From a virus (lineage: Duplodnaviria; Caudoviricetes), in the IMG/VR virus record IMGVR_UViG_3300030104_006170: 64,000 bases of DNA. One strand, 5' to 3'. Made by a program: the position numbers and the translations under genes. A model generated the notes under the pieces. It was not told the DNA's origin. It searched no databases and worked only from the letters and a program-made list of their open reading frames with translations. Shown piece by piece: positions 3,304 to 56,950 of this stretch. Numbering within the stretch: position 1 is the first letter of the stretch; each line of letters starts with the position of its first letter.

Positions 3304-4200
3304 TTACATACAACTAAAATACCTTTCTCCTCTATCACATAATATCGTTATAGCTTCTGTTTTGTCATTATCTCTTAACCACTGGAATGACGCAAATACA
3401 TTTGCTGCTGCACTTATCCCAACAAATAATCCATAATTTTTAGCTAAGTGTCTAGCACATGCTTTAGCACATTCTGTACTTACTATTCTTACTTCTGAAA
3501 CCACATCTAAATTTACTAAAAATTTACTTCCATCCCCAATACCTTGTATTCCATGTAACCCAGGTTCAAAACCCGACATTACCGCACTTTCTGCTGGTTC
3601 AATAGCTACTGATTTTATTTTAGGCCACATTTCTTTTAAAAATTTATCAGTACCCATTAAAGTACCACCTGTTCCGGTTCCAGCTACAAAAACTGCTGGT
3701 GATGATTTTTCACCTTTAATTTCTTTGTATTGATTGTAGAACTCGGGACCTGTAGTTTGGTAGTGTGCTTGGACATTTAGGGGGTTGGCGAACTGATTAC
3801 AGTTAAACCATTCGTTAACGTAACATAGTTCATCTCTCATCCTAATAGCTTCATCGAAGTCTCCTTCAGGTGCCTCAATTAATTCTGCCCCATAATACTC
3901 AAACATTTTTTTTCTTTCTTCAGACATGTTAGATGGCATTATTATCACCATCTTATACCCTCTTTCTGCTGCTAACATAGCAAATGCTATACCACTATTA
4001 CCACTAGTAGCTTCACACATAGTGTCTCCCGGAGTTAAAAGACCATTTTTTTCTGCATTGTTAATTATAAAAGTTGCCATCCTATCTTTTACTGAACCCG
4101 ATGGGTTCATAAACTCAGCTTTACCCCATACTGTGTATTTACCTATTTTTATAGGGATTAATGGTGTGTTGCCAGTGTAATTAGATAGTCTTTGTTTCAT
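3304..4200 (-). CDS. cysK: Cysteine synthase (O-acetylserine sulfhydrylase, PLP-dependent)
   Basis: GNTPL, KAEFMNPSGSVKDR (PLP lysine), EATSGNSGIA, GTGTGGT, HGIQGIG, LCDRGERYFS. Confidence 0.95.
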   Translation of the reverse strand: MKQRLSNYTGNTPLIPIKIGKYTVWGKAEFMNPSGSVKDRMATFIINNAEKNGLLTPGDTMCEATSGNSGIAFAMLAAERGYKMVIIMPSNMSEERKKMFEYYGAELIEAPEGDFDEAIRMRDELCYVNEWFNCNQFANPLNVQAHYQTTGPEFYNQYKEIKGEKSSPAVFVAGTGTGGTLMGTDKFLKEMWPKIKSVAIEPAESAVMSGFEPGLHGIQGIGDGSKFLVNLDVVSEVRIVSTECAKACARHLAKNYGLFVGISAAANVFASFQWLRDNDKTEAITILCDRGERYFSCM

Positions 4201-4628
4201 TAGTCTTCTATTTCTACGTTAAATTTGTCTCCTTGTTGTATTTTTTCAATTGTGTCTAACCCCTCAATAATTTTACCGAAACATGTGTGATTTCTATCTA
4301 AGTGTTGAGTTGCGTTTCTTGTATGTACAATAAAAAATTGTGACCCACCTGTATTTCTACCAGCGTGTGCCATAGATAGTACCCCTCTATCATGAAATTG
4401 GTTTTCTCCATCTAGTTCACAATCAATTTTATAACCTGGTCCACCATCTCCTCTTCCGTTAGGACAACCTCCTTGTGCTACGAATCCTGGAATAACTCGA
4501 TGAAAATTAAGGTCTTTATAAAAACCTTCTTTTGCTAGCTTAACAAAATTGTTTACTGTGTTTGGTGCGTCTTTTTCGTAAAACTCTACCACCATAGTTC
4601 CTTTATCTGTATTAATTTTACCTTTCAT
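4200..4628 (-). CDS. ppiB: Cyclophilin-type peptidyl-prolyl cis-trans isomerase
   Basis: APNTVNNF, FHRVIPGFVAQGG, GVLSMAHAGRNTGGSQFFI, HLDRNHTCFGK. Confidence 0.93.
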   Translation of the reverse strand: MKGKINTDKGTMVVEFYEKDAPNTVNNFVKLAKEGFYKDLNFHRVIPGFVAQGGCPNGRGDGGPGYKIDCELDGENQFHDRGVLSMAHAGRNTGGSQFFIVHTRNATQHLDRNHTCFGKIIEGLDTIEKIQQGDKFNVEIED

Positions 4629-4882
4629 TTTTTTAATTTATTAATTTCTCTGTTTATATACCAACTTGCTTTTTCCAAGTCTTCCAATGTATTAATTTTT
4701 TTACCTGCCCTAGAAATATACTTTACTGTATTACCTAAGTTAAATCCTAAGTCCCACGCTTCAATAACTTTAATAGCTTCATATGGGTTATCTTTACCAC
4801 CGTAGTGATTTGGGTGATTTACCTTTTCTGATTGTTTACGATTAAATTCTATTATTTCTTCGTTTGTAGGGTACTTAGTCAT
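4625..4882 (-). CDS. DUF3310 domain protein (SaV-like)
   Basis: VNHPNHY...EAIKVIE...FNLGNTVKYISRAGKK...LEDLEKASWYI. Confidence 0.88.
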   Translation of the reverse strand: MTKYPTNEEIIEFNRKQSEKVNHPNHYGGKDNPYEAIKVIEAWDLGFNLGNTVKYISRAGKKINTLEDLEKASWYINREINKLKK

Positions 4883-5213
4883 TTTTATCTTTTTTTATAT
4901 AATCTTTTACTTTTGTGTATTGAGAATTACTTAATAATGTAGTTTCATATCTTTTATAGATGTAATTTTTAAGTTCTTCAATATCTTTAAACTCGCTCTC
5001 ACAAACACTTACTATTTTAATATCGGTGTCTTCTTCGTCGGGAAAAAGTAATACCTCATAACCACTCTTATCACTTAAATCTAAAGCAAATTTTTCTAAA
5101 TCTCCTATTCTTAGTGTAGTTGGTTTGGATAGTTTTACCACCATTAGTGGTCTATATTTTTCTAATAGTAATTCGTTCGCTATTCTTTCAGTATTTGTAA
5201 TATCTTTAGACAT
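4875..5213 (-). CDS. Hypothetical protein
   Basis: 112-aa ORF tiling the operon, with a class I promoter directly upstream. Confidence 0.75.
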   Translation of the reverse strand: MSKDITNTERIANELLLEKYRPLMVVKLSKPTTLRIGDLEKFALDLSDKSGYEVLLFPDEEDTDIKIVSVCESEFKDIEELKNYIYKRYETTLLSNSQYTKVKDYIKKDKND

Positions 5214-5247
5214 AGTAAAATTTAAACAAAGTTAAAAATATAGTCAA
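5214..5247 (-). promoter_or_regulatory. Class I promoter TTGACT-N17-TAAATT-N5-ATG
   Basis: Read directly. A TAACTTTG (Bacteroidota -7-like) box also lies inside the spacer at 5227-5234. Confidence 0.55.
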
Positions 5248-5263
5248 TATGTACTGGGTGATT

Positions 5264-5587
5264 TTAATTAAGACAAAAAGGTGGGAAACCGTCTTTAATA
5301 TTTACGAATAATTTTTCTATTTCTTGTTGACGTTTTACAAATTCACCCACATTTATTTCTTGGGTTATATCTTGTATTGCTAAATCAGTAACTATTTCTA
5401 ACATTTCTGTAGAACTTAACATAGGGTCACCATTCTTTTTAAAGTTAATGGTCGCTTTTTTAGCGACCATTTTATAAAACTCATCAATATCTATCTTACC
5501 ATAACCAAACATATCTCTAAATGCTTCTTTATCAGTTTTAAAGAACTCTTTAAGTTTTTGTAAATAGATTTGTATATCAACTTCCAT
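5264..5587 (-). CDS. Hypothetical protein
   Basis: Tiling ORF. The second Met (MEVDIQ) is preferred because the first ATG overlaps a TATTTAT motif. Confidence 0.75.
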   Translation of the reverse strand: MEVDIQIYLQKLKEFFKTDKEAFRDMFGYGKIDIDEFYKMVAKKATINFKKNGDPMLSSTEMLEIVTDLAIQDITQEINVGEFVKRQQEIEKLFVNIKDGFPPFCLN

Positions 5588-5598
5588 ATACATAAATA

Positions 5599-5883: not shown

Positions 5884-5896
5884 TTTATTTTATTTT

Positions 5897-6145: not shown

Positions 6146-6157
6146 ACTACAAATATA
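6146..6157 (-). promoter_or_regulatory. Bacteroidota-type -7 box TATATTTG, 4 nt before ATG
   Basis: Exact match to the TAnnTTTG consensus at 6150-6157; no good TTG upstream element. Confidence 0.5.
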
Positions 6158-6181
6158 CGACTTTTTTATTATTTTATTGTA

Positions 6182-6742: not shown

Positions 6743-6743
6743 T

Positions 6744-6938: not shown

Positions 6939-6939
6939 C

Positions 6940-8150: not shown

Positions 8151-8198
8151 GTTTTATTTACTTGTTAAATCTTAATATTTATGTTTAAAGAAAAACAA

Positions 8199-8435
8199 AT
8201 GGCTTGTAAAAATTGTAAAGAAAAAACTTCTAAATATTTAAAACAGTTAAATAATATGGGTGCAAATGTTAATTTTGACACCGAAGCTAGAAAAAAACAA
8301 ATCTTAGAGAAGACTTGGGACTCGTCAATGGGTAAACTTAGGATGTGGGAACGTTTGGTGATAATTCTATTTGCTTGGATTCCTTTGATAATTGGTTACT
8401 TCACTATAATTAGATTTATAGTTTCATTATTCTAA
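8199..8435 (+). CDS. Small membrane protein with N-terminal CxxC (MACKNC)
   Basis: C-terminal hydrophobic helix. Start at 8199 preferred because the ATG at 8181 overlaps the ATATTTAT motif (8175-8182). Confidence 0.7.
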   Translation: MACKNCKEKTSKYLKQLNNMGANVNFDTEARKKQILEKTWDSSMGKLRMWERLVIILFAWIPLIIGYFTIIRFIVSLF

Positions 8436-9433
8436 CTAAAATTTTCTTTTGTTTTTAAATTCATTAGTAACTCTTCTTCCTCTTTTGTTAATGAATTAGG
8501 TATTTTAACTTGTGGTTTAATTATTAAGTCCCCCTTACCTCTTTGAGAATTCATTCCTTTACCCCTTACATTAAAACTTTCGGTAACTTTACTAAGTGGT
8601 GGTATTTTTGCTTTTAGAGGTCCACTAAAATGTGGTATTTCTAAATCTGTACCCAATAACATGTCTATTATTGGTATTTCCACATCATATACCAAGTCTC
8701 TATCTAAAACTTTAAAGTGGGGATGTCTTGCAATTACTACTTGTATATTTAAATCACCTGGGATACCACCATCAATTTCATCCCCGTGATTTCTAATAGT
8801 GAACACTTGACCTGTCATTAAGTCCACAGGGATTCTAAAGTCTACAGTTTGAGGTTGTTTAGTTTGGCCTATACCACCACAACCACCACAAGCTTCAACT
8901 ACTATTTTACCAGACCCATTACATTGGGGGCATTGTTCCCTTTGGATTTGTCTAAAAAAAGCATTACCTACGGCTTTTTCTACAAACCCCCTTCCCTTAC
9001 ACATATTACACGGGTGTGAGTTACCACCACTACCTCTACAAGTTGTACAATTTACCTGTCTATTATATCTTAATTTTTTAATTTCACCAAAAAATACATC
9101 TTCTAAGGTGACAGTTAACGGTATATTTAAACTTCTACCCTTTTTTTGTTGTCTTTGTTGTTGTCTCCCACCAAAAAATTGATTGAATATGTCGTCCATG
9201 TTTGGACCCCCTCCCTGTCTACCATGAAATGGATTATTTAATTTATTATCATACTCCGCACGTTTACCACCATCACCTAAAGTATCGTAAGCTTCGGATA
9301 GTTCTTTAAATGTATTTTCATCACCACCTTTATCTGGATGATGAGTTTTGGATAATTTCCTAAATGCCTTTTTTATCTCATCTTGAGTGGCATTTCTATT
9401 GATATTTAGAGTTTTGTAATAATCTTTATTCAT
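8432..9433 (-). CDS. dnaJ: DnaJ (Hsp40) chaperone, class I
   Basis: J-domain with HPD, G/F-rich linker, four CxxCxGxG repeats, DnaJ C-terminal domain (GDLNIQV, GKGM, GDLII). Confidence 0.95.
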   Translation of the reverse strand: MNKDYYKTLNINRNATQDEIKKAFRKLSKTHHPDKGGDENTFKELSEAYDTLGDGGKRAEYDNKLNNPFHGRQGGGPNMDDIFNQFFGGRQQQRQQKKGRSLNIPLTVTLEDVFFGEIKKLRYNRQVNCTTCRGSGGNSHPCNMCKGRGFVEKAVGNAFFRQIQREQCPQCNGSGKIVVEACGGCGGIGQTKQPQTVDFRIPVDLMTGQVFTIRNHGDEIDGGIPGDLNIQVVIARHPHFKVLDRDLVYDVEIPIIDMLLGTDLEIPHFSGPLKAKIPPLSKVTESFNVRGKGMNSQRGKGDLIIKPQVKIPNSLTKEEEELLMNLKTKENFS

Positions 9434-17000: not shown

Positions 17001-17008
17001 ATAAATAT
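17001..17008 (-). promoter_or_regulatory. ATATTTAT motif (class II)
   Basis: Overlaps the sigma-factor stop codon, 14 nt upstream of the ATG at 16986. Confidence 0.45.
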
Positions 17009-17805
17009 TAATCACCCAGGTATTCTAACAGTTGGTAGCTGTCATTTCTTAATTTTCTTAATACTTTTTCTTTTATTTGTCTTACTCTTTCTTTAGTTAG
17101 ACTTAGTCCGTCCCCAATTTCTTGTAGAGTCATTGGTGTACCACATAGACCATAATAGTCTATAATAATGTTTCTTTCTCTTTCATCTAGGCTAGACATC
17201 AATTTATAAAGTTCATCTTTTAAATTAACTTCATCTGCAAAAATATCTTCAGGATTTTCAGCATCTGGATTAACTAATATATCTATGAGAGTATCACCTT
17301 CTTCATTTATTGGTCGGTCATAGTTAATTGTTACTGGTAACATAGCAAGTTTACTATTCCACTTTTCTATTTCCTGACTAATTTTTTTCTTTTCTCTTTG
17401 TAGTTCTTGAATTATGTTCACCGGTAGTCTTATAGTCCTAGCGTTTTCGTTTAGACATTGTAGTATAGATTGTTTAACCCACCAGACAGCGTAAGAAATA
17501 AACCTAAAACCTTTATCCCAATCAAAGTTTTTTATCGCTTTAAGTAAACCATAATTACCTTCTGCAATTAAATCAGAAAGTTCAACCCCTTGTCCTTGGT
17601 AGTCTTTCGCTACACTAATAACAAATCTAAGGTTTCCCTCTAGTAATTCTAAATGTACTTCTTCTCTTTTTTCTATCGGGGTGTTCTTATCTAACATTAT
17701 TTTAGCTAATTCTTTTTCTCTAGCTGGTGTTAGTACTTTTCTTTTTCTCACATCTTTTAAGTAGTGTGATATTTCTGCCTGATTTATAAATGTATTTTTT
17801 GCCAT
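17008..17805 (-). CDS. rpoD: RNA polymerase sigma-70 factor (RpoD/SigA-like, Bacteroidota-type, no region 1.1)
   Basis: Region 1.2 YLKDV; region 2 NLRFVISVAKDY..DLIAEGNYGL.KAI..FD...RFISYAVWW; region 4 HTH MTLQEIG..LSLTKERVRQI. Confidence 0.92.
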   Translation of the reverse strand: MAKNTFINQAEISHYLKDVRKRKVLTPAREKELAKIMLDKNTPIEKREEVHLELLEGNLRFVISVAKDYQGQGVELSDLIAEGNYGLLKAIKNFDWDKGFRFISYAVWWVKQSILQCLNENARTIRLPVNIIQELQREKKKISQEIEKWNSKLAMLPVTINYDRPINEEGDTLIDILVNPDAENPEDIFADEVNLKDELYKLMSSLDERERNIIIDYYGLCGTPMTLQEIGDGLSLTKERVRQIKEKVLRKLRNDSYQLLEYLGD

Positions 17806-21227: not shown

Positions 21228-21950
21228 GTGAAAATTAGAATAACCGAAAATCAGTACACTAAATTAGTTAAGGAACAGAGGATTAGTATAGACAAAATTA
21301 AGAAAAATCTTCCTGACCCAATTAAAAAAATAGCGGAAGCTATCATTAATAGATTAACTAAACCTAGTCCTACTGATTATAAAACATTACGTACATTATC
21401 TAGAGATAAATTAAAAAAAGTTTTAAGTTACATTCCTTCTAAATATAAAAATAATGGTGATGCTCCAACATTGTACCCAATACCCACTTTACCAAAAAAA
21501 ATTAATAGTTGTTATGGGTATAGAACTGCTACTGGTACTAATAGATTACACAGTGGTGTGGATTTGGATACTACTGGTTTAAGAAATGACCAACCTCTTA
21601 TATCTGCATGTGCGGGTATTGTTAGTAAAGCTAGTGATGATGGTGGTGATTGTGGTGGTTTTATAAAAGTTGATTGTAATAATGGGGATGCTGTTGGTTA
21701 TTGCCATATGAAAGTTGTTAATGAAAACTTGTATGGTTTAAAAATACCTAAAGGTTTTCCTGTTGGGGTTTCTGGTGGTGGTGAAGGTGACCCAGGTGCT
21801 GGTAATTCTATGGGTCCTCACTTACATTACATGATTTGGAAGGGTGGTAAAAAAGTTAACCCTATAAATGTGATGGCTGGTGGACATACTATTCCTGCTG
21901 GTGGTAGTGAAAATAGAAAGGGTAAGTATTGTGACCCTAACGCTAGATAG
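21228..21950 (+). CDS. M23 family peptidoglycan endopeptidase with MKIRITENQY leader (GTG start)
   Basis: HSGVDL (HxxxD), ISACAGIV, GGFIKV, YCHM, GNSMGPHLHY (HxH). Confidence 0.9.
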   Translation: MKIRITENQYTKLVKEQRISIDKIKKNLPDPIKKIAEAIINRLTKPSPTDYKTLRTLSRDKLKKVLSYIPSKYKNNGDAPTLYPIPTLPKKINSCYGYRTATGTNRLHSGVDLDTTGLRNDQPLISACAGIVSKASDDGGDCGGFIKVDCNNGDAVGYCHMKVVNENLYGLKIPKGFPVGVSGGGEGDPGAGNSMGPHLHYMIWKGGKKVNPINVMAGGHTIPAGGSENRKGKYCDPNAR

Positions 21951-22977
21951 TTTTAAAATAATCTTTAAAAATTTTTCCTTTATATTTTTCTAGTTTACTA
22001 TAAAGTTCCCCATCTTTTTGTTGTTTAATGTCTTCCATTAATACATCTATATCATTTTGTGTTTTAGGCATTAGGCCAACTAAAATTTCTGTAGGTACTT
22101 TGGTCGGTACTGTTTTCCAATACCTACAAAGTTGTATATATCCTAGGTTAACGCCTATATTTTTTGTTATTTTTAAATTAGTTGAAAATTTTAGAATAGT
22201 AAGTATGGTTATTAGTAGTGGATTTTTAATTACTTCTTTTATTTTTACCTTAATGTGTCCCATTGTTTTTCTTTTAAACTCATTAAATTCTTTTCTGGTT
22301 AGCATTTTAACAAAAATATCTTGAGTATTTTTAAACTCGGTTGGTGATGATAAGTATTTTTTTTGTAGAAGAATAGTAGACATTCCGTTGAAGTGGTTGT
22401 ATTGTACTGGTACTTTTTTTATTTGCTTTCCTAGATTTAGTATCTTTGTAGAAAACATTACATCCTCAAATCCCCAATAATAACTTTCATCGTACCCATC
22501 TATTTCTAAAAATTTTTCTCTTTCTAAAACTACTGGTACTTCTTTTAGATATTTTTTTTGTTTTATAATTTTTAGTGGTTCAATATCTGTATGCAACTCC
22601 GGACCCACCATATATACTTTTTCAGTTAATTGATTTGTTAGTTTTTTAACCCAATTATTATCTAGTATTTCACAATCATCATGAAAAAGTGCAACGTACT
22701 TACTTTGTGAATTTATTACACCCGTATTAAAAGCTTTGGGTAAATGATTGGGTAGAGATTTTATTACATTTATTCTTTTATTTACCACATTTATATAACC
22801 TTCATCTAATAAAATATCTTTAACGTTTTGGTCTGGACTATTATCCACAACTATTAACTCAATCTGCCAACCTATATGGTCAGTTGTACTCATAATACTG
22901 GATAAAGTTCTTTCAGTTAAAAACTTATTATTTAATCCATTTGTAATTACTACACAAGAAATACTATTATTTACCAT
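21943..22977 (-). CDS. Glycosyltransferase family 2
   Basis: LIVVDNSPD, AFNTGV...KYVALFHDDCE (DxD-like), FLEIDGYDESYYWGFEDV. Confidence 0.85.
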   Translation of the reverse strand: MVNNSISCVVITNGLNNKFLTERTLSSIMSTTDHIGWQIELIVVDNSPDQNVKDILLDEGYINVVNKRINVIKSLPNHLPKAFNTGVINSQSKYVALFHDDCEILDNNWVKKLTNQLTEKVYMVGPELHTDIEPLKIIKQKKYLKEVPVVLEREKFLEIDGYDESYYWGFEDVMFSTKILNLGKQIKKVPVQYNHFNGMSTILLQKKYLSSPTEFKNTQDIFVKMLTRKEFNEFKRKTMGHIKVKIKEVIKNPLLITILTILKFSTNLKITKNIGVNLGYIQLCRYWKTVPTKVPTEILVGLMPKTQNDIDVLMEDIKQQKDGELYSKLEKYKGKIFKDYFKTI

Positions 22978-24158
22978 CCACCTTTTATTGCTTTAACAAT
23001 ATATTCTTTATCCTCTTTACTTAACCACCATCCAACTGGTATACAAATCATTTCATTAACTAACTTATCTAAGTTGGGTAAATTTCTTTTATATTTTTCT
23101 ACACACGAGTGTTTGTCATTACGTTCATGTATTCTACTAACCATTATACCTTTTGATTCCATCATGTCCATAAATTTTTTTTGATTTTTAACCCTGATTG
23201 TATAAATCCAATAAGAACATTCGTTTTCACTTTTTATTAATTTAAGATTTTTTAAACCCCTTAATTCTTTATTATAGTAAAGAGCATTTTGTTTGTGTTT
23301 TTCTAAAATACTTTCTATGTGTTTAAAATTACACAATCCTATGGTCGCAGAAATATCATTCATATGAAATTTAAATCCCCATTCAGGTATATCATTTTCA
23401 CATCTAAAATCTTTCCTATTATCCTCCCTATCAATACCATACCACCTTAAAAGTTTTGCTCTTTTATAGTATCTATTATTTGGTAGAATTAAACACCCAC
23501 CGTCAACTGTTGTAAGGTGTTTAATAGCTTGAAAACTATAGATAGTGAATGTATCGTGTTTGGTGTTTCCTAATTTTTTACCTTTATACTCGGAACCAAA
23601 TCCATGAGCCCCGTCTTGGATTATTACGGGTCTAAATCCGTATTTATTTTTACATTTTTGTTGTATTTTTTCTACCCTATCTAAGTCTATAGAGTTACCA
23701 CCCCAATGTACTAACATGATGATTTTGGTTTTTTCTGATATCTGTTTTTCTAAATCATCTAAACACATGTTACAAGTTTCTGGGTTAACATCAACCCATT
23801 TTATATTTAAATTATTGGCTAGTATAGGCCAGTTAGTGGCTGTACATGTAAGGGGACAACTGAGTACTTCGTCACCATCTTCTAAACCAGGCCACTCACC
23901 TAGTTGAGGTGCATAATCAGATGAAGATTCTATGGTGTTTGTTGGGTTTTTTAATAAATGTAAAGTTAGGTGTAAAGCTGAAGTAGCTGAATTTAATGTA
24001 ACAAGATTATTACTATCAAAATAGTTTTTTAATTTATCTTCAAACTTTTTTACCTGTGGTCCTTCACCCACAAAACCGGACATTAGTATTTTACCTACTT
24101 CAGTAGGTGCCTCCTCTGACATAAAAACTTTAAATAGGGGTATTTGGGTTTTATCCAT
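22971..24158 (-). CDS. DegT/DnrJ/EryC1/StrS family PLP-dependent sugar aminotransferase
   Basis: NSATSALHL, PLTCTAT, WVDVNPET, IIQDGAHGFG, YSFQAIKHLTTVDGG (PLP lysine), GFKFHMND, LPVGW-like end. Confidence 0.92.
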   Translation of the reverse strand: MDKTQIPLFKVFMSEEAPTEVGKILMSGFVGEGPQVKKFEDKLKNYFDSNNLVTLNSATSALHLTLHLLKNPTNTIESSSDYAPQLGEWPGLEDGDEVLSCPLTCTATNWPILANNLNIKWVDVNPETCNMCLDDLEKQISEKTKIIMLVHWGGNSIDLDRVEKIQQKCKNKYGFRPVIIQDGAHGFGSEYKGKKLGNTKHDTFTIYSFQAIKHLTTVDGGCLILPNNRYYKRAKLLRWYGIDREDNRKDFRCENDIPEWGFKFHMNDISATIGLCNFKHIESILEKHKQNALYYNKELRGLKNLKLIKSENECSYWIYTIRVKNQKKFMDMMESKGIMVSRIHERNDKHSCVEKYKRNLPNLDKLVNEMICIPVGWWLSKEDKEYIVKAIKGGW

Positions 24159-24194: not shown

Positions 24195-24527
24195 TTAAAC
24201 TACTCCTGGTCCGTTGTCTTCGTCTTTGGGTCTATTTTCTTCAAACCACTCTACCATCGCATTAATTGCCCATACTGAACCACTAGCTAACATACCATCA
24301 AAAAATATACTAGTGTAAGGGATAAACGTCATACTTTCTGTTGGGGAGTAGAACGTTAATGAGAAAAAGAATCCTACCCATGTAGATGTACACATCATAC
24401 ATCCAATTAAGTCACCAAAAAAAGTTGATTTTTTTGTTATCCATTCTCTTGTGGTGTCAAATATACTACCAAATACTAATATTTGGGACATTCCGTAAGC
24501 TGCTAAAATCCATATAAGTGTTTCCAT
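24195..24527 (-). CDS. DUF1360-like membrane protein with CxxC (CMMC)
   Basis: Hydrophobic helices; GSIFDTTREW...FGDLIGCMMCTSTWVG pattern. Confidence 0.7.
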   Translation of the reverse strand: METLIWILAAYGMSQILVFGSIFDTTREWITKKSTFFGDLIGCMMCTSTWVGFFFSLTFYSPTESMTFIPYTSIFFDGMLASGSVWAINAMVEWFEENRPKDEDNGPGVV

Positions 24528-47631: not shown

Positions 47632-48264
47632 TTATTTCTCTACTAGTTCTGATGTAGGAAAATATTTTTTATATTCTCTTAGATAAATTTCATCGTCGTA
47701 TTTAAAACCATTATTAATTCTGGTTATTTGTTTTTGTGATGGAAATTGTAGTTTAGTAACCCACAGTCCATTAATAACTTCTTCTTCTATATTCCAATTA
47801 GAAACTATCAATCCGTTTCTTTTAACGTGTTCTGCATAGGCAAGACCTACTTTTTCAAAACTATATGGTTTACAATTTTCTATACCTCCTCTGTAACAAA
47901 TTTTATTTAGTTCTACATTTTCTCTATTTTGGTAATAAATGTCTATGTAAAAATCACAATCCTCTAATGCTATTCTAGATAAATCTATCAAAGTATCCCT
48001 AATTAGTTCTAAAGTATTCTCACCATCGTCCACTAAAATAATATCTATATCCCAACTTTGCCAAGGCAGATTCCCTTTTATATAGTTTGGGAATGAACCA
48101 GTTAGTAATAAGTCAAAATTATTAAAATATGGTTTTTCTTCTATAATACTTAACCATTTTTCAAATCTTCTTAACGTTGGTCTATATATTTTCTTATTTA
48201 CTGATATAGGCCCTACTTCAAATCTAAAAAATCTTCCAAATTCTATTTCTCTCCTTATACTCAT
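47632..48264 (-). CDS. Pol-beta superfamily nucleotidyltransferase-like protein
   Basis: LLLTGSF...SWDIDIILVD (GS plus DxD) and a third acidic position in YIDIY. Confidence 0.6.
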   Translation of the reverse strand: MSIRREIEFGRFFRFEVGPISVNKKIYRPTLRRFEKWLSIIEEKPYFNNFDLLLTGSFPNYIKGNLPWQSWDIDIILVDDGENTLELIRDTLIDLSRIALEDCDFYIDIYYQNRENVELNKICYRGGIENCKPYSFEKVGLAYAEHVKRNGLIVSNWNIEEEVINGLWVTKLQFPSQKQITRINNGFKYDDEIYLREYKKYFPTSELVEK

Positions 48265-48265
48265 A

Positions 48266-51200
48266 TTAACTTAACTCTGTAGGGCCATCACTCACAGAAG
48301 GCATACATTTACATTTATTCCAATCCCAGTAATATCCCTTAGCACAACTTTCAGTTTGTATACAAGGTTCTTCTGTTGGTTCTAAATCATCATCGTGTGG
48401 ACCAATTATTATTGGGACACAACTACAATCTGCTTGTGACCAAACTTGTCCCAGAGGACATGCCCACGATGGTGGTACACAGCACTTGGATGGTGATTGT
48501 GAAGTCCAACCAATACCCAACCAAAACTCACAATCACAAGGAACAGATGAGGTATTTAAGGTTTGGTAACTCCAAGTACCATCTTTTTTAAGTTTTCCAC
48601 AACACTCTTCACATGGTTGGTCTGGTGGTGGACAAGGTGCATTTTGACATGCTTGTAAACTACTATATGCACCACCTTGTGTTGGTATACAGTCATAATT
48701 ACTTGGGTTACCTAAAAGTGGTCTATGTACACAATCGTATTTTAGAGTACCACCGTTATTACATGGGAATACCCCTGTAGATGAACAACTAACCCAACCA
48801 GTCCATTTTCCGGTAAATGTAGAATACATTCCATAATATTCTAATATTCCATCACCATTCATATCGTATATACTACAAGCTTGAGATTGGGAATGAGGGT
48901 CAGATGCCCACGCCTCACCAAAATCATCTACGTCTGATGATTCCATACAACAATAACAACAACCGTCAGTTGGGTCTACGACACACTGGTTATGTGTAAA
49001 ATGTTGATGTCCTACGGTTTTCCACTGTAAAGGTAAAGTTGCTCCCCAGTTAGTAGCCATGTAAGTGTCACAATTATCACAATCTACTGTTGTCCCGGTA
49101 GTTGAGTTGCAAGGACCTCCGTCAGTTGTGATTTTACAACCCATCCACATTCCCCCACCTATATTTACACCTACATGTAATGATGGTTGATGTTGGGATT
49201 TACAGATTGGTTTTGATGGTGTAGGTCCTGAATTTCCTGGACCTGAACCTCCTGGACCTGAACCTCCTGGACCTGAGTGAGATATAGTACCATCATTCCT
49301 TGTAATTGCATGGTCGTCATCATGTGGGTCTGGTCCGGTAAAAGCTCTAACACAACAATAACAACAACCGTCAGTTGGGTCTGTCACACAATCATTCTCT
49401 ACATAGTGTGGGTTGAATGTGGAGTACCATATACCTTCATAATCTATAGGTCCTGATAAATAACCAGATAAGGTTTGTGCACAATCTTCACAACCTGATT
49501 TACAATCTGCTACACATAGTGATAAAGCGTTTGGTCCTTGGTATTGAGCTGTACCTGTATTATTTTGAACACAATTACACGTACCAGGACAATTAACACA
49601 ATCGTAACCTATATCTGGTGGTGTTGTTGGACATAGTGGGTCACAAGGCCACCATATTGGTCCTCTATTTTGAGCATTTTGTTCTTGGGTTGTTGCTGGT
49701 GTTGTTGTACCATTATAAAATAATCCTAATAAGTGGTTTTGGTAGATTTGACTAGGTGAATAATTCATAATATCACTACCAGTAAAATGACAACTATCAC
49801 AAACTAAGACATAACAACAATCATCATATGGGTCTTGGACTATATCAAATGCATTATATATGGTTGCTGTAAACCAAAGACCCACAATATTTGTTGAGGC
49901 TAGTGGAAGAGTTTGTGTAAAACCTATACTATATGTACCATTATGTTTGATGTAAGTAGGTGTTATAAAAGAAGACGGTGGACACTCTTTAGCACAGTCA
50001 TCTGATTGTATTTCACAACAATTTGATATTGGTATTCCGTTTTGACAATCAGATAGGGAAGAATATGTACCAAACAGAGGATTGGCTACACATTTACATA
50101 AACCATTATTACCCACAACACAGTCCCATCTTGTTTTTCCTGTATAACAACACTCATTAACTTGAGCTTCACAATCTGCTTGACTTGCGTATCCACCACC
50201 AGGAGAAGCTGTTTGTACACATTTACACCCTGTTGGTGTACCGAAGTCTATACATTCCCATTCTTTAGTTACTCCAGTATAACAACAATTATGGTTTACA
50301 GCTGTCTGACAATCGTGTAAAGTTGCATATTGGTCAAAAGGCCCACCTAGAACACAATTACAATCAGGTGTGCATTTCCATCTATCTGGCATTGTGTTAC
50401 CTGAACAACATGTAGTTGGGTCATTTTCACAATCAAATAAAGCGTTTGGTCCGGTATAACTACCCATCCCTGCTGGTACAACAACACATTCACATTTAAA
50501 ATTATGTGCACCTACAGGACCTATAACTGGAATTTGTCTACACTCATACTCATCATACCTTACCGTACAACAATTTTGAGAATTATAACACTCTGTTTGA
50601 GAACTAAATCCTGTTATATCATTTGGAATGAATACACAGTCACAAATTTTTGGGTCGCATTTCCAACTACCACAACAAGGGTCATTATTTAAAGTAGCTT
50701 GACAATCGGGTAGATTATTAAAAGCTCCTGTAGGACCAGTAATCATAACACAAGTACATGGACTTTGTCTACACTCACATGGGTCTAGTGTTATAGTCAT
50801 ACATTTGTCTCTAGTTTTAGAACCCCATACAAGATTTATCCCTAAACACACATCATCAAAACTACTTGATAAACTCAATAGTGTACCGGTTGGTGATGTT
50901 ACACCAGCACCTGCTAAACTAGTAATCATGGAACTCCATGTGTTATAAGTTTGAGGTATCCCTAAGCTCATTCCAGCACTGATATGTATACCTATTGGTC
51001 CACCTGGAGTAACTAATGGTAATCCATTGTCTAAACATGGATTAGTTGGACTAAATGGGAATCCCCCATAAGGAAATTTAATATTGTATATATTAGTAGT
51101 TTGTAAGTAGGGTACCCCACTAGGATTTCCTATCATTTGTAGTACGTCATGTTGGTCTAAGAGTGTGGTTGTTGGTGTAATTTTTGTTAGGTTAGAACAA

Positions 51201-54200
51201 CTATCAGTACTAACACCTGGTATACAATCATAAGTGTTTTGTATAACACCTGGCACACATTTAGGGTCACACGGTACCCACTGTAAACTTCCTGTTCCAC
51301 CTCCTGGCCAAACAGGTGTATTTGTACTTAAATCATTAATGTATGCTTGATAATAGAAATAAGGTGGTATTGTCCAGTCTTGAGAGTTTTCAGAAACATT
51401 CACATAACAACATCTAGTATTATCAAAATTAAATGTCACAACATCACCTGGATTATACGCTTGTCCTGAAACCCACGCTGGAGCTCCAGTAATCATATTA
51501 ACTGGTGTAGAACCAAGTACCCAACTAGCAGTACCTACGTCCCACATTTGATAAGTTATTGGACTATTTGTAGTACATTCATAACATTCACAACAAGTAC
51601 CATCATCACCTAATAAAGTTAATCCTTGAACGTAGATATCACAATCAGCCATATTAGAAAATGGGTAAGGTGCACATGAAGGTGAAATTGGTGCAAGTAC
51701 AAAAGTACATTGACATTGTGGTACTGGTTGTACACAGTCCCCACAAACAAAATTACATTCGTTAGTACATGCTGCAGCATTAGTACCATAGAAAGACACA
51801 CATGGATTACCATCACTTCCTGTTGGTGCTGCACCTATATAAGATATACATCCGTCAATTGCGTGACAACAATATTCTGTTTGTGGTTCAAAACAAGTTT
51901 TACTACCAGTTATTGTAAATTGTTGTTGTCCACAATCACCTGGTGATAATGAACTTGGTAATCCTGTCCCACAAGATGCAGTTCCACCACTACAGAATTG
52001 GTCACCCCATGAACATGCTACAACCGCTGGGTCACCACATAAATCACAGAAACCAGTACCTGGAGGTGCACAATCACAACAAAATCTACAAAATTCTTGA
52101 CATTGTGCTTGTGATGGGAATCCCTGACCTACAGGTAAATTACCTAAAGCTACTGCCCAATTATAGTTATTGTTTGGGTCTGAAGGTCCACCAGCTCCTT
52201 GACCATAAGCTTGTGATTGATATGATGATGATTGTGATGCGAAATATGAACTAGGTTGACATGGTTGAGACCCTGGGGTATTGTAAAGTCCGGCATCCGC
52301 ACCCGCATGGTCACACCACCATTCTTCAACTTGGTTTTGACATAAACAATCGGTATTTGCCAATTCACAAGCCGCAGCTGAAGGATAAGTAACTGCCGCT
52401 AAAGACATCGGTATGAATTGACAAGTTTGTGCACCTTGGGTATTACACTCCCAGGTACACCATTCTTGACACCCACTTAAACTAGAGAATGTACCTCCGG
52501 TACCATAGACTGGATAACAACCTACACCCCCCACACAAGGATTACCATTTACAGTTGGACAGTTACAACTATGGTCACATTCCCAAGTGGTTATACCAGT
52601 TGTAGAACCAGTACAACAATCAAATAATCCTGTGGACAATTGTGTTTGACATGTATCTAAAGAATCGTAAGGCCAAAAATATGAACTTGTAACCTGGAAA
52701 ACTATACCTGGTTGTACAGGTGGATAAGTAAATGGAAATGGTGAATACCCATTAAAATAAATCCCTAAATCACCTGTTCCTGGTGAATATATATCATTTA
52801 AATAATCTTGTAAAACTGTGCAGTTTGAAATTTCTGCTGGTCCTCCTGTTGGTGGTCCAGGGTCTGCACAATAACAATCAGCTCTACATTGGTCATTGGA
52901 AACACCAATTAATGGTGTACCACAAGTAGACGCGGTATAACAATTATTTTGTGTTTGCCATATAGAGATGTTCATGGCAGCTGGTGGGTTAAACACACAA
53001 TTAGAAGTTACACAACCAGAAGTTGTACATTGATATGTTTGTGCTGAAGTAGGTCCTTCACAAGGACCGCAAGGGTCTCCAATAACCGGTGTTGGTGTAG
53101 ATGGGTCATAGGATGGTAACCTTTCACATGTTTGCCAACAATTTGGTGTTCCGTCAGGGTAATCTCCATCATCTGGTGGACTAGAGTCACAATCATAACC
53201 TGTTCCCGTTGTATCAGGAGGACACATACATATCCAACAACATTCAGCTGTATTTGCGTCACCATAACTTACCGTTTCAAACATACTATAAGTGTTGGCG
53301 TTAGACCATGGTCCTGACCAAGTAAAAGCTGTGGTTATTGGTATTCCATTAATTGTTAACCAATCTTGACATGCACAATTACAAGTTTCTTCTAGTGGTG
53401 CACAACAAGTCATACCTGTTGTACTTAGTGGGTCTGGACATAATGAGTTAACACAATCTACCATATCACAATAAGGTAAACCTGGATGGTCCGCAAAACA
53501 CTGTACAATACCAGTTAGTCCATTCATTGTATTTACGTAAGCTGGAGAACAACAGTTAACGAAACCAGGACCAGTTGTATCATCTAAATCAGTTTGTGAT
53601 ATCCAATAACATGGGGTTTGTCCACCTCCACCACCTTGTAGTGCAGGTCCAGTAGTTGTAAAAGATGTGTAACCCAGGTATCCAGCTTGTAGTGGGTCAT
53701 CCTCACATACCGCCCTACAACATTCTGTTGCATTACAACATTCTTCAAAAGAAGTATAACCTGTAGGATTACCAGCTGGGTCTGTTGGTGAACCTGGAGA
53801 CCAAGTAACACCAACTTGTGTCATTAAGTATAGACTAGCATAATACATACACCCACCAACTTGTTGTCCTATTTGTGCGGGTGGATTGGTGTCATCATAA
53901 ACAAAACAATCATATCCACCAGGACATGTACAAGCACTTTGACATTGTTGTGCGGAGAGGAAGGTTGGTACGTTTGTCCACGCTGCTGGAACCCAAGGGT
54001 CAGTACCTGTATTAGATACTGGCCAGTAAGGACAATCTAGAGCATTTGTAACTGGGTCTTGATATGGGTAACATGGTACGTTTGAACCGTTTATAACATT
54101 TAAACAGTCACAAACATAACATTCTGTCGCACAAGAACATACCATTTCACAGTCTTGTAATCCTTGTGGTGTATATGGGTAACCACAATTTAATGTATAA

Positions 54201-56950
54201 CAAGGTTGACAGGGGTCACAAATTGGGTCACACTTGTATCCACAAGGGGTGTTACCTACACCTAACCATTGTGGGTTAGCAGCGTAACAGTCAGCTTCAG
54301 TTGTATAACCTGTACCAACAAATACCGGTACACATCCTTCTTCACAATTATAAACCCACATAGTATAATCACAACAACCTGTATAGGTTCCTGCTGAGTT
54401 TGTAAATCCAGCGTTACAATCATTTATATTATAAGGGTCAAAAAATAATTCAAAGGTAAATGCCGCATAGTCTATAAAGTTTAAAAAAGGTGCTGGTGTA
54501 GGTGGTAAAGTTTGCATTACAGTAAACACATTATCTACATAAAATGTTGTACCATTTATAAGGTCATCAGTACATGAAAGTAAACCACAACAATTATTAG
54601 AACTTGCTGGGGTACTAGTAACACAAGAATACGCTGGTGGTTCACACCACGCTAAACAATCAAGTTCATTATCAAAAACCGGACCTTGTGTTGGGTCTAA
54701 TGCACTAGGGTCATTGTATAGTGGGTGTGCTGATGTCATAGCTGAACATCCTTGACAGGAATATTGGTCGATACAAATATATCTATCTTCACAACAATTA
54801 CCTAAGTAAAAAGTATCCATACAATCTTCAAATGCGGCAAAACCTACACTTGTACAAGGTCCCGTACTAGTTGACCCCGTACCAGGTACTAGTTGACATG
54901 AAAGACTAGATGCTGTTAAAGCTGATACTGGTGGACACACCCAACTAGAACATCCAATATAGTCCCAGTATTGATTGTTGGTTAACCCAGATGGTGGTGG
55001 TAAAGTACCACCCGACAAAGCTCTATAACAATTACCCCATTGACCTAAGGTAAATTGTCCTGTAGTATATACATTACCATTACTATATACTCCAGCTGGA
55101 CCTACTGGTGAGATAGTTGGATAAGCGTTCCAAGTGTTGGTTGGGTCATAACAAGGTATGGATGTAAACTCTGGACATGCTTCACATTCTGGGGTACAAG
55201 CCTCCCAAATATGTTCCGTAGGTTGTCCATTATTCCACCAAACTCCTTGTACTAAGTCTGTTGGTTTTATACCAGCCCAAGGGTCTATAGTACCACCTGT
55301 CTGATTTATATCTTGTACTGCCATATAACAACAACATTCACCCCACGTTGAGTCAAATACTATATCTCCTTTAACATAATTTGTTGTTGCAGACCATTCA
55401 CCCCAATTAGTATTAATCATTGGGTTAAAACTTATTGGTTGTGGTAGGTTTGTTACCCTATCTATATATTCATCTTTTGTTTCACAGTAAGTACAATCAC
55501 CTATTTCACATTTTACACAATCAAAAGCACCAAAAGCAAAAGCATCTAAACCACAACTTGTAGCTTCGTATAAAGTAACACCATTACTAAAATCATAAAA
55601 TGTTATTGGTGTGTTAGTACCTATACTAATTGTGTAAGCGGTATATTGTGTATTTTCCACAGTAATCCTACCCATAACTCCCTGTTCTATTTGATTAGTT
55701 ATTGGATTTATTACTTCACCCATTAATGGTACATCTACATTTATCTGGTAACCAGGTGGTAAATTACCGGTTTGTAATGATGTATATGACTGAAATGCCC
55801 CTAGCAAACTTTGTGTATTACCTGTAACCTCAAAACAGTTACTATTATTTCCACCACCAAATATAGGGGACATACCACTATATTGTAAGATGTCAGTACC
55901 AGAATCTAGAGGTGAAAAAGGATAAGCTCCAAAATATGTATTAGTACCTATTGGTCCACTAGGACCTACTACAGGTACATTACTAGGTGGTATACCACCA
56001 GAAGCTTGTAATGTATTATAAGGCATAAAGGGTACTGTTATAGCCTGAGATACTGATGTTGGTCCCCACTCATTTTCATGTGTTATGGTAATTCTTCGTG
56101 TACCTACACCCGCATAAGTGTGTGGTACAGGATTTGTTAGATTAGGGAATTGTAAAGTTTCACAACAAGGGTCACCAAATGCGTTGGTACATGGTGGAAC
56201 TGGACAATCACAAGGACAGTCTCCCCAATTTATAGTATAAGGAGAATTCTGATAACTCTTATAGTAACCAAAATCTGTGGTATTATAAATTTGTATCTGG
56301 TTACCCATAGCTGTAGTAGCGGTAACTACAAAATTAGAAAAAATATCTTTTTGTCCCAAATTTCCGTCCCAAATATCGTAATGCCCTATATCATTAAAAT
56401 CTTGGTCTAAAAAAACTGGAACTTGATGTAAATCATTAAAAACAGGTGGTGGGCAAAAACAAGATATTGTATTTGGTGTTAGGTGTGCATTAGTTTGGGA
56501 ATTTAATGGTTGTGAGAGTGTAGAATTTGTTAAAGAAAACACACTTATTAAATCGTCGTAACTTTCACCGGTAAATGTCATTACCCCAGATTGGTATAAA
56601 TTTAACCCAGCAAATATAACATAAGGATGAGACTCCACATCTAAACAAAATGGTTGATTTAATGTTGGTACATTACCATATGGTGGTGGTGCACCCATTA
56701 CTGGCATAGTAGTAGTATCATTTAATAGGATACATGGATTTGTTGACGAACATCCAGTTAGTTCTGTTGGGAAGTTATTCATGTCACCTTGTAAAGCGTC
56801 CTGTACTTGACTAAATGTAGAGTTGTACATTGTTAATCCTGAACAGTTAGGACTTGTATTAATAGGGTAGAAATTGGTTCCACCAGTACAAGGTACTGTG
56901 TAGTAAACACTAGGATTACTTCTTTTTATTCTATATTTGTATACTTCCAT
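48266..56950 (-). CDS. Giant (2894 aa) Cys/Pro/Thr/Gly-rich mosaic repeat protein; putative tail fibre/adhesin
   Basis: Uninterrupted 8.7-kb ORF. N-terminal PKD-like segment (YTINWGD...HTYAGVGTRRITIT), seven W/Y..Y..GD.V CBM5/12-like modules, many x-C-x-C...YSSLxxCxxxCC modules. Confidence 0.85.
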   Translation of the reverse strand: MEVYKYRIKRSNPSVYYTVPCTGGTNFYPINTSPNCSGLTMYNSTFSQVQDALQGDMNNFPTELTGCSSTNPCILLNDTTTMPVMGAPPPYGNVPTLNQPFCLDVESHPYVIFAGLNLYQSGVMTFTGESYDDLISVFSLTNSTLSQPLNSQTNAHLTPNTISCFCPPPVFNDLHQVPVFLDQDFNDIGHYDIWDGNLGQKDIFSNFVVTATTAMGNQIQIYNTTDFGYYKSYQNSPYTINWGDCPCDCPVPPCTNAFGDPCCETLQFPNLTNPVPHTYAGVGTRRITITHENEWGPTSVSQAITVPFMPYNTLQASGGIPPSNVPVVGPSGPIGTNTYFGAYPFSPLDSGTDILQYSGMSPIFGGGNNSNCFEVTGNTQSLLGAFQSYTSLQTGNLPPGYQINVDVPLMGEVINPITNQIEQGVMGRITVENTQYTAYTISIGTNTPITFYDFSNGVTLYEATSCGLDAFAFGAFDCVKCEIGDCTYCETKDEYIDRVTNLPQPISFNPMINTNWGEWSATTNYVKGDIVFDSTWGECCCYMAVQDINQTGGTIDPWAGIKPTDLVQGVWWNNGQPTEHIWEACTPECEACPEFTSIPCYDPTNTWNAYPTISPVGPAGVYSNGNVYTTGQFTLGQWGNCYRALSGGTLPPPSGLTNNQYWDYIGCSSWVCPPVSALTASSLSCQLVPGTGSTSTGPCTSVGFAAFEDCMDTFYLGNCCEDRYICIDQYSCQGCSAMTSAHPLYNDPSALDPTQGPVFDNELDCLAWCEPPAYSCVTSTPASSNNCCGLLSCTDDLINGTTFYVDNVFTVMQTLPPTPAPFLNFIDYAAFTFELFFDPYNINDCNAGFTNSAGTYTGCCDYTMWVYNCEEGCVPVFVGTGYTTEADCYAANPQWLGVGNTPCGYKCDPICDPCQPCYTLNCGYPYTPQGLQDCEMVCSCATECYVCDCLNVINGSNVPCYPYQDPVTNALDCPYWPVSNTGTDPWVPAAWTNVPTFLSAQQCQSACTCPGGYDCFVYDDTNPPAQIGQQVGGCMYYASLYLMTQVGVTWSPGSPTDPAGNPTGYTSFEECCNATECCRAVCEDDPLQAGYLGYTSFTTTGPALQGGGGGQTPCYWISQTDLDDTTGPGFVNCCSPAYVNTMNGLTGIVQCFADHPGLPYCDMVDCVNSLCPDPLSTTGMTCCAPLEETCNCACQDWLTINGIPITTAFTWSGPWSNANTYSMFETVSYGDANTAECCWICMCPPDTTGTGYDCDSSPPDDGDYPDGTPNCWQTCERLPSYDPSTPTPVIGDPCGPCEGPTSAQTYQCTTSGCVTSNCVFNPPAAMNISIWQTQNNCYTASTCGTPLIGVSNDQCRADCYCADPGPPTGGPAEISNCTVLQDYLNDIYSPGTGDLGIYFNGYSPFPFTYPPVQPGIVFQVTSSYFWPYDSLDTCQTQLSTGLFDCCTGSTTGITTWECDHSCNCPTVNGNPCVGGVGCYPVYGTGGTFSSLSGCQEWCTWECNTQGAQTCQFIPMSLAAVTYPSAAACELANTDCLCQNQVEEWWCDHAGADAGLYNTPGSQPCQPSSYFASQSSSYQSQAYGQGAGGPSDPNNNYNWAVALGNLPVGQGFPSQAQCQEFCRFCCDCAPPGTGFCDLCGDPAVVACSWGDQFCSGGTASCGTGLPSSLSPGDCGQQQFTITGSKTCFEPQTEYCCHAIDGCISYIGAAPTGSDGNPCVSFYGTNAAACTNECNFVCGDCVQPVPQCQCTFVLAPISPSCAPYPFSNMADCDIYVQGLTLLGDDGTCCECYECTTNSPITYQMWDVGTASWVLGSTPVNMITGAPAWVSGQAYNPGDVVTFNFDNTRCCYVNVSENSQDWTIPPYFYYQAYINDLSTNTPVWPGGGTGSLQWVPCDPKCVPGVIQNTYDCIPGVSTDSCSNLTKITPTTTLLDQHDVLQMIGNPSGVPYLQTTNIYNIKFPYGGFPFSPTNPCLDNGLPLVTPGGPIGIHISAGMSLGIPQTYNTWSSMITSLAGAGVTSPTGTLLSLSSSFDDVCLGINLVWGSKTRDKCMTITLDPCECRQSPCTCVMITGPTGAFNNLPDCQATLNNDPCCGSWKCDPKICDCVFIPNDITGFSSQTECYNSQNCCTVRYDEYECRQIPVIGPVGAHNFKCECVVVPAGMGSYTGPNALFDCENDPTTCCSGNTMPDRWKCTPDCNCVLGGPFDQYATLHDCQTAVNHNCCYTGVTKEWECIDFGTPTGCKCVQTASPGGGYASQADCEAQVNECCYTGKTRWDCVVGNNGLCKCVANPLFGTYSSLSDCQNGIPISNCCEIQSDDCAKECPPSSFITPTYIKHNGTYSIGFTQTLPLASTNIVGLWFTATIYNAFDIVQDPYDDCCYVLVCDSCHFTGSDIMNYSPSQIYQNHLLGLFYNGTTTPATTQEQNAQNRGPIWWPCDPLCPTTPPDIGYDCVNCPGTCNCVQNNTGTAQYQGPNALSLCVADCKSGCEDCAQTLSGYLSGPIDYEGIWYSTFNPHYVENDCVTDPTDGCCYCCVRAFTGPDPHDDDHAITRNDGTISHSGPGGSGPGGSGPGNSGPTPSKPICKSQHQPSLHVGVNIGGGMWMGCKITTDGGPCNSTTGTTVDCDNCDTYMATNWGATLPLQWKTVGHQHFTHNQCVVDPTDGCCYCCMESSDVDDFGEAWASDPHSQSQACSIYDMNGDGILEYYGMYSTFTGKWTGWVSCSSTGVFPCNNGGTLKYDCVHRPLLGNPSNYDCIPTQGGAYSSLQACQNAPCPPPDQPCEECCGKLKKDGTWSYQTLNTSSVPCDCEFWLGIGWTSQSPSKCCVPPSWACPLGQVWSQADCSCVPIIIGPHDDDLEPTEEPCIQTESCAKGYYWDWNKCKCMPSVSDGPTELS
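48947..49382. repeat. 31-bp perfect direct repeat (48947-48977 and 49352-49382)
   Basis: ACAACAATAACAACAACCGTCAGTTGGGTCT occurs twice and encodes DPTDGCCYCC on the minus strand. Confidence 0.9.
49227..49276. repeat. 15-bp tandem repeat (CCTGGACCTGAACCT), about 3 copies, encoding a GPGGS linker
   Basis: Read directly; protein sequence SGPGGSGPGGSGPGNSGP. Confidence 0.9.

Follow-up and report, generated by a model that had tools for sequence, protein, structure and literature searches.

The stretch of DNA analysed here, IMG/VR virus record IMGVR_UViG_3300030104_006170, is 64 kb long (hereafter, the window), has a GC content of ~32% and carries nearly every gene on the minus strand. A first-pass annotation had proposed that it encodes an integrated system, formed by a cysteine synthase-like gene (cysK), a cyclophilin gene next to it, a dnaJ gene and the genes for three small CxxC proteins with the motifs CPSC, CMMC and CKNC, which would supply cysteine to Cys- and Pro-rich giant virion proteins, fold them, and form their disulfides or load them with metal. 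Scans with Pfam, NCBIfam and PHROG profiles, and an AlphaFold2 (AF2) fold for the CPSC protein, confirmed that all of the named genes exist (Table 1).

Table 1. Features of the 64-kb window (aa, amino acids; PLP, pyridoxal phosphate; ORF, open reading frame)
Feature	Position	Strand	Evidence or remark
Glutamine synthetase N-terminal domain (gene extends past the window edge)	1-492	-	beside cysK
DUF192 protein	659-994	+	metabolic island beside cysK
DHH-family protein, 503 aa	984-2495	-	kept even in Cys-poor relatives
CysK/CysM-family PLP enzyme (cysteine synthase-like auxiliary metabolic gene)	3304-4200	-	Pfam PALP, E 1.7e-61
Cyclophilin-type peptidyl-prolyl isomerase	4200-4628	-	Pfam Pro_isomerase, E 1.5e-42
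DruA-like protein, 391 aa	6940-8115	-	Pfam DruA (Druantia defence protein A), E 1.1e-25
Small tail-anchored CKNC protein	8199-8435	+	N-terminal CKNC, C-terminal hydrophobic segment
Type I DnaJ co-chaperone, complete	8432-9433	-	Pfam DnaJ, DnaJ_CXXCXGXG, DnaJ_C
Sigma-70-type factor, phage-encoded	17008-17805		
CPSC glutaredoxin-fold redoxin, 112 aa	17944-18282	-	AF2 fold and sub-threshold profiles
GT2 glycosyltransferase and adjoining DegT/EryC1 sugar aminotransferase	21943-24158	-	
DUF1360-like membrane protein, three hydrophobic segments, CMMC	24195-24527	-	Pfam DUF1360, E 1e-4
Tail-module protein, 260 aa	32494-33276	-	12 Cys (4.6%), dockerin/EF-hand-like Ca motif
Tail-module protein, 802 aa	33276-35684	-	15 Cys (1.9%), conserved family-wide
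Tail-module protein, 1321 aa	39289-43254	-	31 Cys (2.35%), clustered in the C-terminal third
Tail-module protein, 306 aa	46457-47377		marker for related contigs
ORF of 210 aa	47632-48264	-	directly downstream of the giant gene
Giant Cys/Pro-rich putative tail-fibre protein, 2894 aa	48266-56950	-	246 Cys (8.5%), 258 Pro (8.9%)
Protein of 1220 aa adjoining Baseplate J	59669-63331	-	39 Cys (3.2%), cluster at residues 559-755, conserved family-wide
Baseplate_J-like wedge protein, C-terminal part	63445-63990	-	Pfam Baseplate_J, E 8.8e-07

The window is a fragment of an uncultured marine jumbo myophage of ~300 kb from a bS21-encoding family whose hosts are predicted to be Bacteroidota. An IMG/VR contig, UViG_3300025151_000037 (G001), is 98% identical to window positions 5861-64000 and comes from the same phage population; CheckV estimated this 61-kb contig to be 19% complete, which puts the genome near 300 kb. 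Megablast of 20 kb of the window against 50,697 phage records gave no match. With the 306-aa tail-module protein as marker, at least 592 related IMG/VR viral contigs were found, several of them 270-309 kb long and 91-100% complete. Of seven large relatives, six have a gene for ribosomal protein bS21, which links the group to the bS21-encoding jumbo phages with Bacteroidota hosts of Chen et al. (2022; PMC9723584), in which an FKBP-type peptidyl-prolyl isomerase (PPIase) is among the most transcribed genes. Common to both are ~300-kb genomes, myophage baseplate genes, bS21 (here in the relatives) and a phage PPIase; the marine subclade differs in having cyclophilin alone, or along with FKBP (G004), and in having cysK plus giant proteins of 5-9% Cys. 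No mention of cysteine was found in PMC9723584, and the comparison with its phages, for which five clades are defined, was by gene content. The whole relatives compared are given G numbers. The Cys-rich marine genomes are G002 (93% complete), G003 (70%), G004 (66%) and the partial contigs G007 and G008 (32% and 34%), and the Cys-poor genomes are G012 (100%, with terminal repeats), G013 (99%) and G014 (91%). Contig G017 is without the entire DnaJ-to-sigma region and carries no information on cysK or cyclophilin.

The earlier statement that the structural module is unusually rich in Cys and Pro was borne out by the giant protein and by the Cys clusters of its 260-, 802-, 1220- and 1321-aa companions (Table 1). 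The Cys load is far above chance; window proteins of less than 500 aa have 1.3% Cys. Assignment of these proteins to a tail module is based on conserved gene order and on the Baseplate_J C-terminus, which in G001 and G007 belongs to a full-length protein of 612 aa; since none of the large ones matched Pfam or PHROGs, they are here called putative virion proteins. In a comparison among four homologues of the giant protein, 43-78% identical, Cys was the best conserved residue, 67% of the cysteines being invariant versus 24% of residues overall. Modules of ~40 aa, each with six invariant Cys, follow one another in tandem in this protein, and a profile of the 6-Cys repeat region found only nine representatives among 1.84 billion proteins, which indicates that the module is restricted to this lineage. 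A poor AF2 model of the region (pLDDT 54.6) suggests beta-beta-alpha units. Zinc-finger sites are argued against by the lack of CxxC enrichment (24 observed versus 20.8 expected) and by a His content of 1.1%; the protein is also very acidic, and it appears to fit disulfide-rich extracellular-type modules better than zinc sites. At 80 related loci the gene at this position varied by clade, encoding 2400-3000 aa with 7.4-8.6% Cys in the closest clade, 500-1250 aa with 3.6-6.9% Cys in an intermediate clade, and ~1700 aa with 1.0-1.8% Cys in a distant clade. Variable genes for distal tail or fibre proteins behave in this way.

Three further observations concern this module. The giant gene (48000-56000) is 38-40% GC versus ~30% elsewhere in the window, which the Cys, Pro and Gly codons could explain without horizontal transfer. 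The 210-aa ORF lies at the usual site of tail-fibre assembly chaperones; it is present in the window, G007 and G008, not in G004, and is a more conventional folding-helper candidate than DnaJ or cyclophilin. Far from the baseplate module, G002 (173497-201114) and G004 (188867-202968) have a second giant Cys-rich cluster (L106-L108, L122-L123), comprising proteins of 4512 aa (4.8% Cys), 1977 aa (5.5%), 636 aa (9.4%) and 1051 aa (4.6%) in G002, and of 2948 aa (5.0%) and 1740 aa (5.2%) in G004. The window phage may have equivalents of this cluster outside the window.

The cysK-like gene product matched PALP, the fold-type II PLP enzyme domain, with 208.6 bits (cut-off 35), and its PLP-Lys motif SVKDR, TSGN substrate loop, GTGGT phosphate loop and QF all align to the cysteine synthase of PDB entry 8t2c_A. 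The NCBIfam scores were below cut-off (cysKM, the best, 288.6 versus 344.15; cysK, 276.4 versus 350.95; cysM, 229.6 versus 394.2), which makes the protein a divergent member whose exact reaction is not assured. The putative direction is synthesis of cysteine from O-acetylserine and sulfide. For cysE there were just weak acetyltransferase matches, all below cut-off, and so cysteine synthesis would depend on O-acetylserine from the host. On these terms cysteine supply by CysK, the first arm of the proposed system, is plausible. The gene lies in a metabolic island, away from the tail genes, and at least 254 IMG/VR viral contigs encode relatives of it.

The cyclophilin matched Pro_isomerase with 146 bits (cut-off 21.7), and the stop codon of its gene overlaps the cysK start codon in the sequence TAATG. 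The two genes adjoin at 36 of 80 cysK loci, every one from a single subclade, and cyclophilin is confined to the marine clade. FKBP-type PPIases are encoded by G012, G013 and G014, and also by G004; the Cys-poor FKBP carriers have a Pro content similar to that of their Cys-rich relatives. DnaJ has the HPD motif in its J domain, a Gly-rich linker, four CxxC motifs and the C-terminal domain, with all three Pfam domains above their cut-offs and a DnaJ_bact equivalog score of 280, under the cut-off of 377. It was found in every family member scored, Cys-poor ones included. DnaK is encoded by five relatives (G002, G003, G004, G012 and G014), two of them Cys-poor.

For the CPSC protein the sequence profiles were all weak and below cut-off (Pfam Thioredoxin_2, E 0.0034; GlrX_YruB; phrog_22). 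Its AF2 model (pLDDT 82) has a thioredoxin-type fold with the CxxC just ahead of a helix at residues 19-30, and a TPVM motif, the cis-Pro loop, is conserved. The best Foldseek matches to the model were glutaredoxins (E 3e-4 to 3e-3, TM 0.45-0.54). The motif is CPSC in the window and CPDC or CTDC in relatives, and only four homologous clusters were found in 5.8 billion proteins. The CMMC protein matched DUF1360 (PF07098) with 22.7 bits against a cut-off of 21, over profile positions 51-80 of 102 around the CxxC only, and phrog_781, of unknown function, at E 7.6e-6; in the family its C-[MP]-M-C motif is invariant, being kept in Cys-poor G012-G014, and it is the product of a family core gene. The CKNC protein has no Pfam or PHROG match. 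Its start in relatives is the second Met, and its CxxC is kept in four relatives, as CTNC in some. Both the redoxin gene and the CKNC gene were found only in the window, G007, G008 and G004. A canonical thioredoxin is encoded in G002, G003 and G004, and a protein of ~640 aa just past Baseplate J gave weak but consistent matches to the large-subunit C-domain of ribonucleotide reductase (RNR) in five of five relatives searched (~32 bits summed). With a family thioredoxin and an RNR-like protein at hand, a reductive role for the redoxin is at least as likely as an oxidative one. The site of the RNR-like gene (G007 68828-70732 and equivalents, L164-L171) is an odd one for RNR, if RNR it is.

To ask whether the gene set follows structural Cys content, the Cys share of each genome was defined as the fraction of its encoded Cys found in proteins of at least 300 aa with at least 4% Cys. 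In the Cys-rich marine genomes, Cys in all ORFs and the share were 1.63% and 39% for G002, 1.51% and 31% for G003, 1.81% and 44% for G004, and 1.75% each, with shares of 42% and 41%, for G007 and G008. The corresponding values for the Cys-poor genomes were 1.21% and 2.6% for G012, 0.89% and 2.6% for G013, which has the lowest Cys of all, and 1.15% and 1.8% for G014. The predicted co-occurrence held for cyclophilin, the redoxin and the CKNC protein, which track Cys-rich subclades, and failed for DnaJ and the DUF1360-like protein, which are present in Cys-poor G012-G014. PPIase function is also kept there, in the form of FKBP, and cysK is kept in part, in G013. Moreover, cyclophilin, the redoxin and CKNC each represent one nested phylogenetic split; they give no independent evidence, and shared ancestry explains the pattern equally well. 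As to tRNA genes, the complete Cys-poor genome G012 has 19, tRNA-Cys among them (L257-L272), and no tRNA-Cys was found in the marine-clade genomes scanned, where the only tRNA is one tRNA-Pro in G003.

The distribution of cysK is of a different kind. It is present in G007, G004, G002, G003 and G013, is absent from near-complete Cys-poor G012 and G014, and occupies at least five different genomic neighbourhoods in the family. It adjoins cyclophilin in the window, G007 and G004; it is flanked by a sigma factor and a 775-aa gene in G002 and by DnaJ and the DruA-like gene in L076, G003 has it at yet another site, and in G013 its neighbour is the DUF1360-like gene. In G002 and G003 more than 65 kb separates cysK from cyclophilin. 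In a maximum-likelihood cysK tree, 33 of 37 cyclophilin-adjacent copies form one group and the other four a separate group, the G002, G003 and L076 copies fall among loci with otherwise unrelated flanks, and the G013 copy is a very long branch. In G005 and G006, distant phages with almost no other gene in common with the window, cysK is 67-69% identical. The 635-kb phage LR745206 has it at 58% and gave no hit to the giant protein or the cyclophilin, in a search whose negatives carry no weight. In this family cysK thus behaves as a mobile auxiliary metabolic gene (AMG). Previous work showed that phage cysK is a widespread AMG that is transcribed and translated (Kieft et al. 2021, bioRxiv 10.1101/2021.01.05.425418). 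The window gene shares with known phage cysK/cysM AMGs, those of that study and of Lactococcus phages P087 and phiQ1, the CysK/CysM PLP enzyme with its catalytic motifs, carriage by lytic phages, abundance in marine viral contigs and mobility across genomic contexts. It differs in its translational coupling to cyclophilin, in scoring below the NCBIfam equivalog cut-offs, and in belonging to a jumbo-phage clade with exceptionally Cys-rich tail-module proteins.

The remaining arm of the proposal, disulfide formation or metal loading, was pursued through a search for oxidation or maturation machinery. DsbB and VKOR have two redox-active Cys pairs and four or more transmembrane helices; the CMMC and CKNC proteins, with one Cys pair (two Cys) each and with three and one hydrophobic segments, respectively, lack these features. 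Profiles for DsbA, DsbB (PF02600) and VKOR (PF07884) found no match in G001-G004, G007 and G008, the control genomes being positive, and there was no Evr1_Alr match in Pfam scans of the main window ORFs (E <=0.01). The poxvirus cytoplasmic disulfide pathway consists of the Erv-family oxidase E10R, A2.5L and the thioredoxin-like protein G4L. The window phage resembles it in assembling in a reducing cytoplasm and in encoding a small thioredoxin-fold CxxC protein; it differs in that no Erv/ALR-type or other oxidase was found and that Cys-rich G002 and G003 lack the redoxin, and no linkage was found between the candidate components. For cyanophage Pam3, disulfide-linked tail fibres and baseplate are described (PMC9942802), and the part of that account considered here mentions no phage-encoded disulfide pathway. 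Pam3 is, like the window phage, an aquatic myophage with cysteines in baseplate and fibres, which in Pam3 stabilise the virion covalently; in that account Pam3 has a handful of them, whereas the giant protein has 246 in orphan 6-Cys modules whose disulfides are putative. Radical-SAM-matured Cys-rich fibre modules likewise have a Cys-rich protein in a phage tail-fibre module. This candidate was rejected, since radical SAM (PF04055) had no match in G002, G003, G004, G007 and G008 (the control was positive in 14 of 14 genomes) and the Cys pattern is not a short CxxX/CxC repeat. Neither a phage-encoded disulfide pathway nor metal loading is supported by these results.

We think it probable that the flagged genes are at least four independently evolving layers and not a single pathway. 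The family-wide chaperone set, namely DnaJ, DnaK in several genomes, and an FKBP or cyclophilin PPIase, would be older than the Cys-rich proteins and is likely to serve the general folding of many very large phage proteins. The DUF1360-like CMMC protein is a core component of unknown function, kept by Cys-poor relatives. As a mobile AMG common in marine phages, cysK most likely boosts cysteine (thiol) from host O-acetylserine and sulfide during infection, and in this clade it would have become translationally coupled to cyclophilin. The CPSC protein is perhaps best viewed as a lineage-specific cytoplasmic glutaredoxin-like redoxin, for which a role as reductant, in thiol maintenance or ribonucleotide reduction, is likelier than one as oxidant. 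For the structurally conserved cysteines of the giant protein, the most likely fate is disulfide bonding after release, when the virion is in oxic seawater, with no phage oxidase involved; metal binding by them is less likely.

Several observations weigh against separate layers. A thioredoxin-fold protein can be an oxidant, as poxvirus G4L is, and the fold alone leaves the direction unfixed. The absence of Evr1_Alr matches in the relatives is uninformative on Erv/ALR, as the control genomes were equally silent. The redoxin and CKNC genes coincide exactly with the subclade that has the ~2900-aa, 8% Cys protein. The TAATG overlap suggests that cyclophilin and cysK are co-expressed. All of the informative Cys-rich marine genomes (the window with G007, G004, G002 and G003) carry both cysK and cyclophilin, whereas among the three near-complete Cys-poor relatives one has cysK and none has cyclophilin. 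In the marine clade 31-44% of the encoded Cys is concentrated in a small number of proteins that have 4% Cys or more, and repeated relocation or gain of cysK in the family could reflect selection for cysteine supply.

A weaker link is a tentative and, in our view, on balance unlikely alternative: the cyclophilin-cysK operon would have been fixed in the marine clade by the Cys and Pro demand of the giant tail proteins, with CysK topping up cysteine late in infection, cyclophilin speeding the folding of 9%-Pro proteins, and no phage oxidation step. The contrast in Cys share (31-44% in G002-G004 versus 2-3% in G012-G014), the presence of both genes in four of four Cys-rich genomes, and the retention of the translationally coupled pair in 36 related IMG/VR loci favour such a link, and structural proteins and sulfide bridges are among the possible uses of viral sulfur AMGs listed by Kieft et al. 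(2021, bioRxiv 10.1101/2021.01.05.425418). Yet the association amounts to one phylogenetic split, with habitat as a possible confounder. Moreover, cysK is also found in the Cys-poorest genome G013, in the distant phages G005 and G006 and in Lactococcus phages, such as the cysM/cysK carrier phiQ1, whose annotated structural proteins have 0.87% Cys. The pair is widely separated in G002 and G003, Cys-poor relatives of similar Pro content use FKBP, supply would still be tied to host O-acetylserine, and cysK sits beside glnA in the metabolic island, not beside tail genes.

It is also conceivable, though improbable, that CysK is mainly degradative, for instance releasing sulfide by cysteine desulfhydration, which has been suggested for CysK of other phages, or that it moonlights, for instance by binding host CysE in a regulatory role, in either case unrelated to virion composition. 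Kieft et al. (2021, bioRxiv 10.1101/2021.01.05.425418) class cysK with the sulfide-producing AMGs and report that added sulfide raises phage yield, and many phages of ordinary Cys content carry the gene. Its active-site motifs are those of biosynthetic O-acetylserine sulfhydrylases, however, although sequence does not discriminate catalytic direction, and the Cys-rich clade has an evident use for cysteine. The full system, in which CysK supply and folding by cyclophilin and DnaJ are joined to a disulfide or metal-loading relay of the CPSC, CMMC and CKNC proteins, like poxvirus E10R-A2.5L-G4L or DsbB/VKOR, is highly improbable: although every component is present in the window, relatives that have the three small proteins keep their CxxC motifs, and the redoxin and CKNC are limited to the 8% Cys giant-protein subclade, the six genes are spread over 21 kb among unrelated genes, Cys-poor relatives keep DnaJ and the CMMC protein, motif included, the CMMC and CKNC proteins have half the Cys pairs of DsbB and VKOR, neither a DsbB, VKOR or DsbA match nor an oxidase linked to flavin or quinone was identified, the redoxin is most like cytoplasmic glutaredoxins, and G002 and G003, with eight and nine proteins of at least 4% Cys, respectively, do without the redoxin and CKNC. 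In sum, the integrated cysteine-supply and folding system is only partly supported, and the candidates left for a link to the Cys-rich proteins are the pair of cysK and cyclophilin and, more weakly, the private redoxin.

Other features of the window lie outside this argument. The DruA-like protein is 87-93% identical across marine-clade phages; in a lytic jumbo phage such a protein could be a decoy or the product of a counter-defence gene. The GT2 glycosyltransferase and the DegT/EryC1 sugar aminotransferase, whose close homologues were found only in the window, G007 and G008, may serve in the synthesis or transfer of an amino sugar, with a virion protein or DNA as a possible acceptor. The motif ATATTTAT occurs 12-24 nucleotides upstream of several starts on the minus strand, that of DnaJ included (e.g., 47623, 18858, 17008, 12939, 9457 and 3264); eight of its 11 minus-strand occurrences are no more than 80 nucleotides upstream of a start codon. 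The motif, a candidate promoter element of the phage, was not found before cyclophilin-cysK and does not separate early from late genes. The phage also encodes a sigma-70-type factor (Table 1).

Discussions of phage cysK usually treat it as a general sulfur auxiliary gene or as a source of sulfide. In the marine bS21 branch, giant proteins of 5-9% Cys, built from orphan 6-Cys modules, might have expanded along with fixation of the coupled cyclophilin-cysK pair and, within the 8% Cys subclade, of a private glutaredoxin-like redoxin and the tail-anchored CxxC protein, all of them forming an adaptive cysteine economy that provides and controls thiols for building the virion; we hold this to be doubtful, but if true, a sulfur AMG would here serve a structural demand, a use for which no phage example has yet been described. 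Were an AMG shown to meet the amino-acid needs of one particular virion component, that would provide a concrete selective rationale for AMG carriage and would show phages managing the redox state of their own particles. The most remarkable object in the window is the giant protein and not the proposed pathway. Its 246 conserved cysteines, in modules nearly unique among the proteins searched, recommend it for structural and redox studies of virion stabilisation in oxic seawater.

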